DNA of 64,000 nt from an uncultured archaeon (GTDB taxonomy: Archaea > Nanobdellota > Nanobdellia > Pacearchaeales > GW2011-AR1), in contig CAIPOI010000002.1 in the NCBI GenBank assembly GCA_903866625.1, forward strand, positions 37,063 to 101,062. Reading direction: 5' to 3'. Within the stretch, counting starts at the first letter, position 1, and every line of letters starts with the position of its first letter. A program made the translations under genes and the position numbers. This document shows positions 61,364-64,000 of this stretch, piece after piece. The notes beneath the pieces are model-generated. The model was not told where the DNA came from. It saw only the letters and a list, made by a program, of their open reading frames with translations, and did no database searches.

Positions 61364-64000
61364 TTATTTCTGAGGATTAAGATATGAGTCAAGAACCTTT
61401 TTAACTCTCGGTGTGGTGATTGCGCCGTCTTTTGTCACTCTACCTCCTGAATAATTAGTTTCAACTCTTCCGATTTCTCTTCCATCTGCCCCAAAAAGAA
61501 TAACTGTAGGTATTCTTGAAGGATTAACACTTCCCAAAAGCAATTTTGCCATACCTTCTTCTTCATCTGCTTTATAAGTTTGTATTGTCATTTCTTGACC
61601 ATATTCTTTTCCAACTCTTCTAGCTTCTCCATTTAAAACAATTCCACTTTTATCACACATTACACATCCATTTTTACCAATTATAACTCCTGTAACTTTC
61701 CCAGGTTCTCCTGTCAATCTTGGAACTTCAAATTCACTTCCGGTTCTAGACGCTTCAACTCTATAGTTTCCTTTTCTTCTATCTGCCCCTTCTTCAAGTT
61801 TAGAAGCATTCCAATTTCTAAATTGGCTAAAATATCCAACTATTCGAGTCATAGAAGTTAAAGTATCTCCATCACTATTTTTGCAATTGGGACAACTTTC
61901 ATGCACACCTCTGTGTGTAGTTTTACAAGCTCTACAAACCGTGAACTCAGGACTAATAGTTACTTGCGCAGATTGTGTATTTCTGTAAATATCCTCTACT
62001 AAAGAGAAAACCGCAGATTTAGAAGGCTTCTCATCTCCAACAAACGCATGTATTATTGCTCCAGATTCAATCGCAGGATGAAATAAACTCTGAGCTTTTA
62101 TTCTTGTAATTAAATCTACTGGAGCATCCGGTCTTAAGTGTATGCTGTTAGTATAGTAAGGCCTATTTCCTTCTATATCTCCTTTTATAACTGCTTTAGA
62201 TTCTGGATAAAATTCTAAATCACTCTTAGCAAATCTTCTAGTGGCAGATTCTGCAGGGCTTTCTTCTAAACTGAACTTTAATCCGTGCTCTTGAGAATAT
62301 TTTTTTACTCTTGCATTCATATGAGTTATTGTTCTAAGGGCATATTTTTCAAATTCTTCTGCATTTAGTTCATGCAATTCTTTTCCTGTTAAGAATTGAA
62401 CTGCATCATTTAATCCAATAATTCCAATAATATATGTTGCCTTTGCTAAATCAATATAGGGTTTCTCGTCTATTGGGCTTGGTTTAGATACAGAATAAAG
62501 TATCTGTCCTTTTCCAGTTGTTTTACCTAAGAAATCTTTTTTTTGAAGATGAGCTTTTAATGCTAAATCCATTGTAGCATCAATCTCTTCAAAAAATCCT
62601 TCGAGAGATTTTTTGTTTTTTCTTGAGGCACGATAGGCTGCCTGAGGTAAATTAATAGTCACATTTTGAAAACCACAGAATCTAACTGATTCAGGATGGC
62701 TTAATACATAAGGATCATCTAAGGTAGTTCTTAGTCTACAACAGGCCGCAAGAGTTACAGCATCTCTATCAAATATAAAATAAGTACTGCCATTATGACT
62801 TGCCAGTTCACAAGCTTCATCTAAAACTTCTTTTTGCATGGGGTCTGTAAATGTTGCTTCATCAACATGAAAATCACATTTTGGGAAGGCAAATAAAGAA
62901 CCATCTGCATCTCCAGTCTTATATGCTTTTAAAAGATTTTTTGCAAATCTGCTTACAATACCTTTACTATGGTAATCTCCATAAGTAATCATTTTTTCTC
63001 CTTCTTCTAAAAATTCTTCTCTTTTTATTGAAGGTATTTCTTTTTGAGTAGTTGGATCTTTCCAAACTTCTAATTTTTCTCTTGCTACAACTTTTCCAGT
63101 TGAAGGATCAAAATATTCTGAAAGTTTATAGCCTGTTGAAGTTTTTTCTTCTATTTTTCTTTCTTCTAATAAAACTCTTTTACCATTTCTTTCGAGCATA
63201 TACTTGCCCTTTGGACCAACCGCAAGAGTATTTTTTAAAAATTCTGGGACTCCTGCATGTATATTAAAGTCTAAGAAAAGAGTTTGTCCTCCTCGTGAAA
63301 AAGCATTTTGGGAGCCATTAAAAATAACTTCTTGTGCTGCTTGATACATAAATGCATCAATATCTGCTTCACTTAATGCTCTAATTGGATTTTCTCTTAA
63401 TCCTGCAAGAGTTTTTTCTTCCTGAGAAATTGCTAACTCCAAAGCAGAAACTTCAATTCCATCTCGTCTGCAACTTTCTGCTATTGCTCTGTTTCTTTGA
63501 AGCGCACTATCCATTGCATTTATTCTATCTATCCCTTTTTTTTCTAAATCTGATTCTATTAAAGGGGCATAAAAAATGTTCATGTATCCTATTCCTAGTG
63601 CTCCAGAATAATTGCTTTGCATACTTGCTAAAAAAGTATTAAGATGTCCTGTTAAAGTCGCAGTATGTCCTGCAGGTTTTGAAGCAGTTTGAAGATTATC
63701 TAATCGCATGCCTAATTTTTTTATATACTCCAAAGAATGCCCAGAACAATAAACTCTGTTAACTAAACCCAAATCATGCAAGTGTATAGCGCCCATATTA
63801 TGTGCTTGAGCTAAATCTGGAGAAAATACTTCTGTAAGTGCAAACTGCTTACTCAAATACTCAAAAGCATTAAATTCTAAGGCCCCCGGATTATTTGCAG
63901 CAATATTGCTATTCTCTACTGCTTTATTAAATAATAAATCTAAAATATTTGCTTTAGGTATAATCAGATCACTATATCTTGCTGCATTTTGATTTAAACC
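61364..64000 (-). CDS. nrdD: Class III (anaerobic) ribonucleoside-triphosphate reductase with C-terminal thioredoxin-fold extension; N-terminus beyond right window edge
   Basis: Zn site CRAC...CPNC. Glycyl-radical motif TRIVGYFS. The frame stays open upstream of the track TTG start to position 64000 (…GLNQNAARYSDLIIPKANILDLLFNKAVE…). An extra 132 aa follows the Gly-radical domain. Confidence 0.85.
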   Translation of the reverse strand, partial: GLNQNAARYSDLIIPKANILDLLFNKAVENSNIAANNPGALEFNAFEYLSKQFALTEVFSPDLAQAHNMGAIHLHDLGLVNRVYCSGHSLEYIKKLGMRLDNLQTASKPAGHTATLTGHLNTFLASMQSNYSGALGIGYMNIFYAPLIESDLEKKGIDRINAMDSALQRNRAIAESCRRDGIEVSALELAISQEEKTLAGLRENPIRALSEADIDAFMYQAAQEVIFNGSQNAFSRGGQTLFLDFNIHAGVPEFLKNTLAVGPKGKYMLERNGKRVLLEERKIEEKTSTGYKLSEYFDPSTGKVVAREKLEVWKDPTTQKEIPSIKREEFLEEGEKMITYGDYHSKGIVSRFAKNLLKAYKTGDADGSLFAFPKCDFHVDEATFTDPMQKEVLDEACELASHNGSTYFIFDRDAVTLAACCRLRTTLDDPYVLSHPESVRFCGFQNVTINLPQAAYRASRKNKKSLEGFFEEIDATMDLALKAHLQKKDFLGKTTGKGQILYSVSKPSPIDEKPYIDLAKATYIIGIIGLNDAVQFLTGKELHELNAEEFEKYALRTITHMNARVKKYSQEHGLKFSLEESPAESATRRFAKSDLEFYPESKAVIKGDIEGNRPYYTNSIHLRPDAPVDLITRIKAQSLFHPAIESGAIIHAFVGDEKPSKSAVFSLVEDIYRNTQSAQVTISPEFTVCRACKTTHRGVHESCPNCKNSDGDTLTSMTRIVGYFSQFRNWNASKLEEGADRRKGNYRVEASRTGSEFEVPRLTGEPGKVTGVIIGKNGCVMCDKSGIVLNGEARRVGKEYGQEMTIQTYKADEEEGMAKLLLGSVNPSRIPTVILFGADGREIGRVETNYSGGRVTKDGAITTPRVKKVLDSYLNPQK

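Follow-up and report, generated by a model that had tools for sequence, protein, structure and literature searches.

A diverged thioredoxin-fold domain fused to the C-terminus of an archaeal class III ribonucleotide reductase, a probable dedicated disulfide reductant

To our knowledge, a physiological reductant has been identified for no more than three class III (anaerobic) ribonucleotide reductases (RNRs). The class III RNR of Methanosarcina barkeri ('NrdD3') reportedly shares its operon with an NrdH-like redoxin and a ferredoxin:disulfide reductase. NrdD3 enzymes have been defined by a QCCR/A finger loop together with the lack of both the Met and the Glu (PMC9669993). The Neisseria bacilliformis NrdD and that of Thermotoga maritima represent the thioredoxin-dependent class III RNRs ('NrdD2'; Wei et al. 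2014, as reported in PMC9669993 and PMC4390871). A 'thioredoxin only' NrdD is recognised by a Met-less double-Cys finger loop, by a Glu corresponding to T. maritima E495, for which a proton-donor role in formate-independent NrdDs has been proposed, and by repeated turnover on a protein dithiol but not on formate (PMC9669993). Redoxins joined to RNR polypeptides include the class I Grx::ATP-cone::NrdB protein of Facklamia ignava, in which the Grx domain is an efficient reductant of the holoenzyme, and one grx::nrdD fusion listed from a RefSeq search, that of Lachnospiraceae bacterium TWA4 (PMC6187632). No external disulfide or C-terminal Cys pair is known for class III RNRs (PMC4390871).

We examined the nrdD gene at the end of a 64,000-nucleotide stretch of DNA from an uncultured archaeon (hereafter the window). 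The gene for this class III catalytic subunit occupies 61364..64000 on the minus strand and was identified from its ORF, Pfam NRDD and matches to NrdD structures in the PDB (8p23, 9d3x, 4coi and 1h78). Its TAA stop lies at 61364-61366, and the ORF exceeds the window end, with 878 aa inside the window, 1066 aa in the open frame of the genome, and the ATP-cone N-terminus beyond the window. Residues 29-743 correspond to positions 1-561 of the 562-position Pfam NRDD profile (PF13597; E 3.3e-114). A four-Cys zinc ribbon, CRAC...CPNC (61883..61936, minus strand), was aligned to the zinc-ribbon cysteines of solved NrdDs; among 14 aligned full-length proteins, C689, C692 and C703 were invariant and C706 nearly so. 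Behind this ribbon follows a glycyl-radical motif of the form R-[IV]-x-G-[YF], read directly from the sequence as TRIVGYFS (61826-61849, minus strand). Within RIVGYFS, Gly722 (codon 61835-61837, minus strand) was aligned to the radical-Gly loop of solved NrdDs and taken as the glycyl-radical site, and V721-G722-Y723 were invariant in the same 14 proteins.

The initial annotation of this DNA had drawn attention to a 132-aa C-terminal extension past the glycyl-radical motif, and we found this extension as described. The reading frame continues unbroken through exactly 132 codons, from 61762 down to 61367 on the minus strand, until the TAA, and the peptide contains the quoted CVMC and R-I-P-T-V segments. 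The accompanying statement that NrdDs normally stop soon after the motif also agreed with our comparison: ordinary NrdDs of the same order terminate 25-35 aa past it, so the extension in the window is both real and unusual. The tail (61367..61762) comprises a linker of approximately 22-25 aa and a thioredoxin-fold domain, as delineated by AlphaFold2 (AF2), Foldseek and profile matches. In the AF2 model, a CxxC motif, CVMC (61655..61666, minus strand), caps the N-terminus of helix 1; its cysteines are Cys779 and Cys782 of the 878-aa sequence. Alignments with thioredoxins placed Pro85 of the tail (Pro831; 61508..61510, minus strand) at the cis-proline position of the thioredoxin fold, directly before strand b3.

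The fold of the tail was then assessed. AF2 modelling of the tail from an 8-sequence alignment returned a pLDDT of 89.5 and a pTM of 0.82, with the topology b1-[CxxC]a1-b2-a2-[Pro]b3-b4-a3, in which C33 and C36 open helix H34-54 and P85 stands immediately ahead of strand E86-90; this is the b-a-b-a-b-b-a order of the thioredoxin fold, with CxxC at the start of helix 1 and Pro ahead of strand 3. The same elements were recovered in a model of all 878 aa (pLDDT 86-94 in the domain and 69-81 in the preceding coil). Foldseek against the PDB gave 130 matches at E<=1e-3, nearly all of them thioredoxins at probability 1.0, with target-normalised TM scores of 0.6-0.75. Comparison of a profile built from the tails with the PDB matched the Pyrococcus horikoshii Grx-like protein 1j08 (PDO; 8e-5), DsbA (2e-4), DsbC (5e-4) and also Grx1, and hhalign to the window's own thioredoxin gave an E of 2e-5 with CxxC and cis-Pro in register. 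The strand and helix order of thioredoxin or glutaredoxin type that had been read from the letters is thus borne out by the modelled topology, the Foldseek matches and the profiles, and the proposed AlphaFold check returned a confident thioredoxin fold.

Assignment to a named redoxin family was not obtained. Searched by itself against Pfam, NCBIfam and PDB sequences, the window tail had no significant match; its kinship is visible only through profiles and fold. Related tails fell at or near the cut-offs of Pfam Thioredoxin_2 and Glrx-like. The window tail had no Pfam or NCBIfam match to thioredoxin proper (PF00085/TIGR01068), which has a WCGPC-type site; its own site reads GCVMC, without Trp. 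The hallmark of NrdH is C-[VM]-Q-C plus WSGFRP, and that of glutaredoxin is CP[YF]C plus glutathione-binding motifs. NrdH-redoxin identity (TIGR02194) was rejected, as the best E was 0.08 in one of eight tails and CVMC is present but WSGFRP absent; its counterpart in the window tail is YSGGR, which is not kept in relatives. Glutaredoxin identity (PF00462) was likewise rejected, the window tail being without a match and its diverged relatives matching weakly and below threshold only. The tail is a generic, diverged thioredoxin-fold domain outside NrdH and glutaredoxin proper, and of the 'thioredoxin/NrdH-fold' label applied earlier, the thioredoxin fold stands while NrdH membership does not, no curated model being reached at its cut-off.

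We sought to characterize the distribution of the extension among related proteins. Of 93 related NrdDs examined (94 when a split gene of one genome is counted), 21 were fused; 92 of the set entered the tree, with all 21 fused forms among them. A search of 301 genomes of the order found the fusion in 13, precisely those with the divergent NrdD, and it was also present in the related sequences P0002/P0003; carriers belong to Pacearchaeota, Woesearchaeota, Nanoarchaeota, Auribacterota, UBP3 and one member of the Verrucomicrobiota. A pattern scan of contigs with a 3-tail alignment returned no relatives, and a scan with a full-length alignment recovered them. When 1.84 billion representatives were searched with the tail by phmmer, there were only six real matches, all of them NrdD C-termini. 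The picture of a tiny family restricted to NrdD was, however, overturned by an HMM search of neighbouring ORFs. The tail HMM matched a free ORF directly 3' of nrdD in approximately 65 unfused bacterial loci (E 1e-5 to 1e-14), encoding a protein of 90-140 aa in Verrucomicrobiota, Lentisphaerota, Kiritimatiellota and Gemmatimonadota, with the order nrdD-redoxin-nrdG in 57 of them. In every named record among the matches listed (120 of 467 clusters), the free gene is labelled 'hypothetical protein'. Fused or free, the family is characterized by G-K-x-x-C-x-x-C, [TD]-E-[ED]-G-[LM] and N-P-x-R-[IL]-P and by its position directly after NrdD, all of which the window tail fits. The NrdD-core tree calls for three changes between the fused and unfused states, by fusion or fission, with at least two of them forced, and the lone fused Verrucomicrobiota sequence was nested within unfused relatives.

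Both CxxC cysteines and the Pro were invariant in three alignments (9 metagenome tails, 8 tails and 14 full-length proteins), and in the 8-tail alignment the Cys pair and cis-Pro position were kept down to 15-19% identity. Together with a tail dN/dS of 0.22-0.40 among four close relatives, indicative of purifying selection, this invariance argues that the extension is not a chance continuation of the frame. The residues between the two cysteines vary widely in relatives (VM, VL, SL, AI, HI, PV, PN, PL, PT, NM and EL).

The NrdD core was found to carry a redoxin-type active-site signature. Its finger loop contains Cys420-Cys421 in AACCRLR (62738..62743, minus strand), a double Cys without a preceding Met. 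CCR is invariant and the loop reads [AS][AQ]CCR in 14 of 14 aligned clade members; that of ordinary NrdDs of the same order is MCCR, and a sister DPANN group has QCCR with the Glu retained. Glu579 in FSLEESPAE (62264..62266, minus strand), invariant in the 14 full-length proteins, was aligned with Glu495 of T. maritima NrdD through a phmmer alignment to 4coi. The invariant Cys85 in VYCSGHS (63746..63748, minus strand) was assigned by motif and position as the putative betaA Cys pairing with a finger-loop Cys. The combination of CC without Met, Glu and a betaA Cys predicts formate-independent turnover via a protein dithiol, and by this signature the window NrdD would be of the type in which every turnover oxidises an active-site Cys pair and no formate is consumed.

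In these features the window protein resembles the NrdD2 enzymes, being likewise a glycyl-radical NrdD that combines a Met-less double-Cys finger loop with a betaA Cys and a Glu matching Tm E495. It differs from them in that their redoxin is the soluble housekeeping TrxA, whereas the window carries a diverged thioredoxin-fold domain after the radical domain and its relatives encode the redoxin between nrdD and nrdG; its core is also approximately 200 aa longer than the N. bacilliformis/T. maritima type owing to two inserts. Similar in gene content to the M. barkeri operon, the family includes a dedicated small thioredoxin-fold protein in the nrd operon, to which the window adds a neighbouring [4Fe-4S] reductase resembling the ferredoxin:thioredoxin reductase (FTR) catalytic subunit and a ferredoxin. 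The window NrdD is nevertheless distinct from NrdD3, with ACCR, a Glu and a fused redoxin, and the FTR-like gene occurs in only 2 of 13 fused-NrdD genomes (order-wide search).

Comparison with systems outside class III gave a similar mixture. As in the F. ignava and other Grx-RNR fusions, a redoxin is joined to an RNR polypeptide, but those domains are glutaredoxins that Pfam can recognise, whereas that of the window escapes the Grx and Trx models and is part of a family of its own, which also has free-standing members. The F. ignava Grx is N-terminal and the TWA4 protein is written grx::nrdD, whereas the window domain is C-terminal; furthermore, the F. ignava fusion involves the radical-generating subunit of an aerobic RNR, and that of the window the catalytic glycyl-radical subunit. 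The C-terminal Cys-pair shuttle of class I/II RNRs also places a redox Cys pair at the C-terminus of the catalytic subunit as a proposed electron carrier from outside to the active-site disulfide, though it consists of a short flexible peptide or Zn-finger that needs a redoxin, and the window element is itself a folded redoxin. The class Ib NrdH-redoxins resemble the window tail in being small RNR-dedicated thioredoxin-fold proteins that lack a glutathione site and carry a motif like C-[VM]-x-C (CVMC in the tail), but the tail lacks WSGFRP and its partner is an RNR of a different class. The earlier impression that this is not a described arrangement holds as far as the literature was searched, in which no paper describing a C-terminal redoxin fusion to NrdD was found; the single grx::nrdD listing (PMC6187632) is the exception to it.

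The neighbouring genes were also considered. The radical-SAM activase gene nrdG (60597..61361, minus strand; 254 aa; Radical_SAM, Fer4_12) starts 2 nt past the nrdD stop, and this adjacency is kept in all related loci. Beyond it lie a WCMPC thioredoxin (60205..60543, minus strand; PF00085, E 1.7e-26), the second of two in the genome; the FTR-like disulfide reductase with CPC...CPC...CKC (59788..60063, plus strand; FeThRed_B, E 7.7e-23), whose nearest PDB chain is 4tpu (E 2.7e-14); and a 60-aa [4Fe-4S] ferredoxin (59547..59729, minus strand; Fer4_13, Fer4). A TrxR-like/Trx pair is present elsewhere in the window. A thioredoxin adjoins nrdG in 7 of 16 fused loci, and a ferredoxin is near nrdG in three loci (L001, L028 and L032). 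A same-genus genome (G005) has neither a thioredoxin nor an FTR-like gene at its nrdD locus. Given this absence and the rarity of the FTR-like gene, the ferredoxin, FTR-like protein and thioredoxin were rejected as conserved partners of the tail in general.

We consider it probable, at roughly 70%, that the tail is a tethered, NrdD-dedicated disulfide reductant, the fused form of a small redoxin. Dedication to NrdD is suggested by the free homologue that follows nrdD in the unfused loci, a Rosetta-stone relationship, and by the repeated changes of state; a reductant role is suggested by the redoxin-type active site (ACCR without Met, the Glu and the betaA Cys) and by the precedents of thioredoxin-dependent NrdD and of Grx fused to NrdB as a working RNR reductant. 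Whereas the fusion, the fold, the conserved CxxC and Pro, the free homologues with their gene order and the active-site signature are established here, we infer that the tail is redox-active, and likewise which way electrons flow and which donor lies upstream. NrdD turnover would oxidise the betaA/finger-loop Cys pair, the tethered CxxC would most likely re-reduce the active-site disulfide after every turnover, and a soluble system would then re-reduce the tail. Candidate upstream donors are the adjacent thioredoxin, the FTR-like reductase with ferredoxin, and/or the TrxR-like/Trx pair. The tail may in this manner supply the 'reductant in cis' that the initial annotation had envisaged. Counted against the reductant reading are the lack of a match between the window tail and any curated Trx, Grx or NrdH model, the upstream donors that are not conserved, and the wide variation between the two cysteines, which implies no obvious tuning of redox potential.

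It is also conceivable, if unlikely, that the tail is an activation helper that keeps the cysteines of the zinc ribbon and glycyl-radical domain reduced, or repairs them once oxidised, enabling NrdG to install the radical, with turnover electrons coming from elsewhere. The tail directly follows the zinc ribbon and radical loop, the free homologue has nrdD on one side and the activase gene on the other, and thioredoxin activates the Escherichia coli class III RNR (Padovani 2001, as cited in PMC4390871), a role that would fit the same genomic evidence and was for that reason also weighed against the reductant reading. However, the zinc ribbon is common to all NrdDs, so an activation role would predict no clade restriction, and the redoxin, free or fused, tracks a single NrdD clade with the Cys-pair, Glu and no-Met signature. 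Activation of the enzyme and reduction at turnover do not preclude each other.

The glycyl radical is oxygen-labile and the tail is attached beside it, which could be taken to indicate a redox sensor or protective switch, in which CxxC oxidation under oxygen or disulfide stress moves the tail and shuts or shields the radical domain, with no catalytic electrons transferred. An invariant CxxC with widely varying inter-Cys residues would suit such a switch. We give this reading little credence, as it is without role-specific support, free-standing homologues encoded in an operon fit a substrate-type redox partner better, and the active-site signature of NrdD calls for a disulfide reductant. A non-redox structural or docking domain (for example in dimerisation or NrdG binding) that merely keeps the thioredoxin fold would account for the missing curated-family match, for the lack of a Trp before CxxC and for the absence of other Trx, Grx or NrdH signature motifs. 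The CxxC cysteines and cis-Pro are the first residues lost in degenerate thioredoxin folds, and their invariance in even the most diverged tails makes this reading very improbable. An assembly or sequencing artefact, in which a lost stop or frameshift merged nrdD with the separate redoxin gene that relatives have at exactly the matching place, is already effectively refuted by the same uninterrupted frame in independent assemblies (the same-genus genome, two other metagenome contigs and approximately 20 further species), by the conserved linker motif F-x-V-P-x-L and by the purifying selection on the tail. The earlier concern about a separate small redoxin gene was thus apt in the evolutionary sense and unfounded as a matter of artefact: judged from the sequence comparisons, the window carries a genuine fusion of a gene that its relatives encode separately after nrdD.

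More tentatively, and with somewhat less than even confidence, the tail and its free homologues may constitute an unrecognised class III RNR-dedicated redoxin family, the obligatory physiological reductant of the whole 'long' [AS][AQ]CCR NrdD subclass of DPANN archaea and of PVC, Gemmatimonadota and KSB1 bacteria. The family would unite in class III the functions of NrdH and of the class I/II C-terminal Cys-pair shuttle, and in this archaeon it would form the final step of a pyridine-nucleotide-independent wire that leads from ferredoxin through the FTR-like reductase, (thioredoxin) and the tail to the active site. If this is true, the redoxin's repeated and independent joining to the radical domain would demonstrate that the two act in direct contact. 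The fusion and the free gene between nrdD and nrdG name a specific, testable electron donor for an NrdD subclass that is widespread among uncultured archaea and PVC-group bacteria, including the cultured Pontiella, whose free protein has 131 aa. The finding would allow small redoxin proteins now labelled 'hypothetical' to be annotated, and it indicates how deoxyribonucleotides may be synthesized in minimal-genome organisms without evident formate metabolism.

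The nrdD ORF was found on the reverse strand, where it is open to the window end (64000) and terminates in a TAA stop at 61364-61366; the Pfam NRDD domain spans residues 29-743 of the 878 visible NrdD residues (E 3.3e-114). In the genome carrying the window (0.73 Mb), the open frame is 1066 aa, and the full-length protein (P0001) has an ATP-cone at its N-terminus. The glycyl-radical motif RIVGYFS was read directly from the sequence (Gly codon 61835-61837, reverse strand). Further downstream, the frame runs on through exactly 132 codons (61762-61367), the tail, which holds CVMC (61655-61666, reverse strand) and, beyond it, R-I-P-T-V; nrdG starts on the same strand 2 nt past the nrdD stop. 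This reading confirmed the in-frame extension with CVMC and I-P-T-V proposed in the initial annotation, and ordinary NrdDs of the same order terminate 25-35 residues beyond the motif.

As a single sequence, the tail had no sequence match in Pfam, NCBIfam or the PDB, and none of the curated models reached its cut-off on it. AlphaFold2 with an 8-sequence alignment gave a confident model (pLDDT 89.5, pTM 0.82) comprising, in tail numbering, b1 (23-29), the CxxC (33-36) capping a helix (34-54), b2 (58-64), a helix (68-76), Pro85 immediately ahead of b3 (86-90), b4 (96-101) and a helix (117-128). The predicted fold is that of a thioredoxin. A Foldseek search against the PDB returned 130 hits at E ≤ 1e-3, thioredoxins nearly throughout, while the tail profile matched the P. 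horikoshii Grx-like protein 1j08 (8e-5), DsbA, DsbC and Grx1. Through hhalign, the CxxC and cis-Pro region aligned with the window's own thioredoxin (E 2e-5), and tails of diverged relatives scored 27.1 bits against Thioredoxin_2 (cut-off 27) and 25.4 against Glrx-like (cut-off 26). NrdH, glutaredoxin and canonical thioredoxin were ruled out as identities, as the tail possesses neither WSGFRP nor glutathione motifs nor a Trp before the CxxC; the initial thioredoxin/NrdH-fold reading is thus retained for the fold and dropped for NrdH. In the 878-aa model, the tail domain keeps a pLDDT of 86-94; a coil about 25 residues long (pLDDT 69-81) connects it to the radical domain's final helix (732-743). 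It was also noted that the fused tails of one DPANN subgroup (loci L033, L034, L036 and L040; genomes G144, G159, G257 and G034) carry an extra insert past b4 that contains another Cys pair, C-x5-C (NCSAGVCG, GCTNGVCG, NCQSGVCS and NCSNNVCG), and might serve as a second redox pair or as a swinging loop.

We found NrdD in 109 of the 301 genomes sampled from the order, most of these proteins being tailless, about 700 aa long and equipped with an MCCR finger loop. In a subset of genomes, NrdD matches the Pfam model with a much lower score (E 1e-103 to 1e-123, compared to 1e-175 to 1e-204), and this subset coincides exactly with the 13 tail bearers. Their NrdDs fall into a separate "long" clade, distinguished by two inserts (a helical hairpin and a beta-rich module), whose approximately 200 extra core residues account for the low score (NrdD residues ~140-340; window 63300-62990 and about 63200-62990, reverse strand). 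In the 878-aa model, both are confidently predicted: three long helices occupy 140-234, and the beta-rich module 267-337. Across the clade, the betaA-type Cys (VYCSxHS) is invariant, the finger loop is [AS][AQ]CCR with no Met, and a Glu that counts onto T. maritima Glu495 (phmmer alignment to 4coi) is invariant. Class III enzymes with the Glu present and the Met absent are expected to use a thioredoxin-type reductant only (PMC9669993).

Several variants were encountered. In G022 (contig C17, about 7600-8250; loci L008/L041), NrdD is interrupted within the zinc ribbon, with the remainder (second CxxC, glycyl-radical loop and redoxin tail) on a separate, overlapping 207-aa ORF; the break may be a frameshift, or the enzyme may truly consist of two pieces. 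In the fused NrdD of L032 (G145, contig C10), the normal ribbon is followed, ahead of the glycyl-radical motif, by a second zinc-ribbon-like insert (CKCGHNHYGPIDKCPLCGN); this region was called separately as database protein P0006 (196 aa). In close relatives, an NrdR-type repressor gene (Zn_ribbon_NrdR plus ATP-cone) lies directly upstream of the fused nrdD (L001:7531-7965; L002:1094-1528; L003:456-890), the corresponding region here falling past the window end. NrdR is generally held to be bacterial, and this lineage is a DPANN archaeon.

An NrdD of the Glu-present, Met-absent type forms an active-site disulfide at each turnover, and the best-supported reading, to which we assign a probability of roughly 0.7, is that the tethered CxxC would re-reduce it. 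For M. barkeri, a class III system is reportedly known that involves NrdH-like and ferredoxin:disulfide reductase proteins. Class III RNRs using thioredoxin are likewise known: a soluble thioredoxin takes for N. bacilliformis NrdD the role proposed here for the tail; in F. ignava NrdB, a fused Grx takes it (PMC6187632). Class III is stated to have no external or C-terminal Cys pair (PMC4390871). In our full-text literature searches, neither a C-terminal Trx-fold domain on NrdD nor a free gene between nrdD and nrdG was found to have been described. The initial view that the arrangement is undescribed holds within these searches for the C-terminal domain and is qualified by one grx::nrdD listed among Grx fusions to RNR subunits (PMC6187632).

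A rival to active-site re-reduction is a role in activation, with the tail keeping the Zn-ribbon cysteines reduced; thioredoxin has been reported to act in this way on E. coli NrdD, as cited in PMC4390871. The tail acting as a redox switch, or as a non-redox docking domain, are further rivals.

For re-reduction by the tail, the upstream donor is uncertain. A second thioredoxin (WCMPC) and a ferredoxin lie beside nrdG, together with a 91-aa FTR-catalytic-like protein (59788-60063, forward strand; closest PDB chain 4tpu, E 2.7e-14), and this set recurs near nrdG in locus L001. The FTR-like protein does not have the extra domain of 4tpu (173 aa). In 14 of 15 fused-NrdD genomes there is a TrxR-like gene with a score of about 300 bits, under the 343-bit cut-off; the one remaining genome has the FTR-like gene instead. 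In the window, the TrxR-like gene (about 29154-30029, reverse strand; TIGR01292, 306 bits, likewise under 343) adjoins another Trx gene, the pair spanning about 29154-30368 (reverse strand), so the genome holds a pair of Trx genes, which it may reduce by two routes. Of the 13 fused-NrdD genomes that the order-wide search found, just 2 have the FTR-like gene, and the same-genus genome lacks it; the gene's family is sporadic in the order (18/301 genomes), with no tie to fused NrdD. Given these distributions, a ferredoxin-driven wire to the tail is a reasonable reading for this genome and not a conserved property of the fusion.

The fusion itself is real and conserved. Database proteins P0002 (1067 aa) and P0003 (1061 aa), from other metagenomes, share the tail at 62-67% identity on contigs with the same neighbourhood. 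An artefact, such as the frameshift or missed stop considered in the initial annotation, is effectively excluded by the uninterrupted frame in these proteins, in the same-genus genome (G005) and in 13 of the 301 order genomes (1013-1191 aa, bar one cut by a contig end), by the invariance of both CxxC cysteines and the Pro in every alignment (9 tails; 8 tails, reaching down to 15-19% identity; 14 full-length proteins), and by a tail dN/dS of 0.22-0.40 among four close relatives, approximate because dS is near saturation.

A scan of species-representative genomes with the "long" clade alignment gave 80 loci, nine of them with a fused tail (two Pacearchaeota, Woesearchaeota, Nanoarchaeota, Auribacterota, UBP3, two unclassified and one Verrucomicrobiota). 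In the remaining ~70, NrdD ends 35-60 aa past the radical motif; these include Verrucomicrobiota, Lentisphaerota/Victivallales, Kiritimatiellota (among them the cultured Pontiella sulfatireligans), Gemmatimonadota, KSB1, Glassbacteria and others. About 65 of these unfused loci have, as the next gene downstream and in the same orientation, an ORF that scores against the tail HMM (E 1e-5 to 1e-14), with the order nrdD-redoxin-nrdG in 57. Tails and free proteins have FGKxGCxxC, [TD]-E-[ED]-G-[LM] and NPxR[IL]P in common, and none of the free proteins was assigned to a curated family. The Pontiella protein matched 467 clusters; among the 120 listed, every NCBI or JGI name was "hypothetical protein", one bore the additional UniRef name "Glutaredoxin domain-containing protein", and none had a precomputed Pfam domain. 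In a Planctomycetota locus (L113:4784-6055), the redoxin homologue ends a 424-aa stop-to-stop frame whose front resembles a DNA methyltransferase; this frame may represent two genes, or a fusion of a different kind.

In a FastTree NrdD-core tree (92 rows, tail columns removed), the fused state occupies three places: a DPANN clade of 8, the window-containing clade of 12, and a lone Verrucomicrobiota among unfused relatives. Three fused/unfused changes are needed, at least two of them forced by well-supported branches, compared to a mean of 19.2 under label shuffles. The tail thus represents a true gene fusion of an nrdD-linked redoxin, one that has recurred, and its occurrence both fused and as a free gene is classic Rosetta-stone evidence that NrdD and the redoxin work together.
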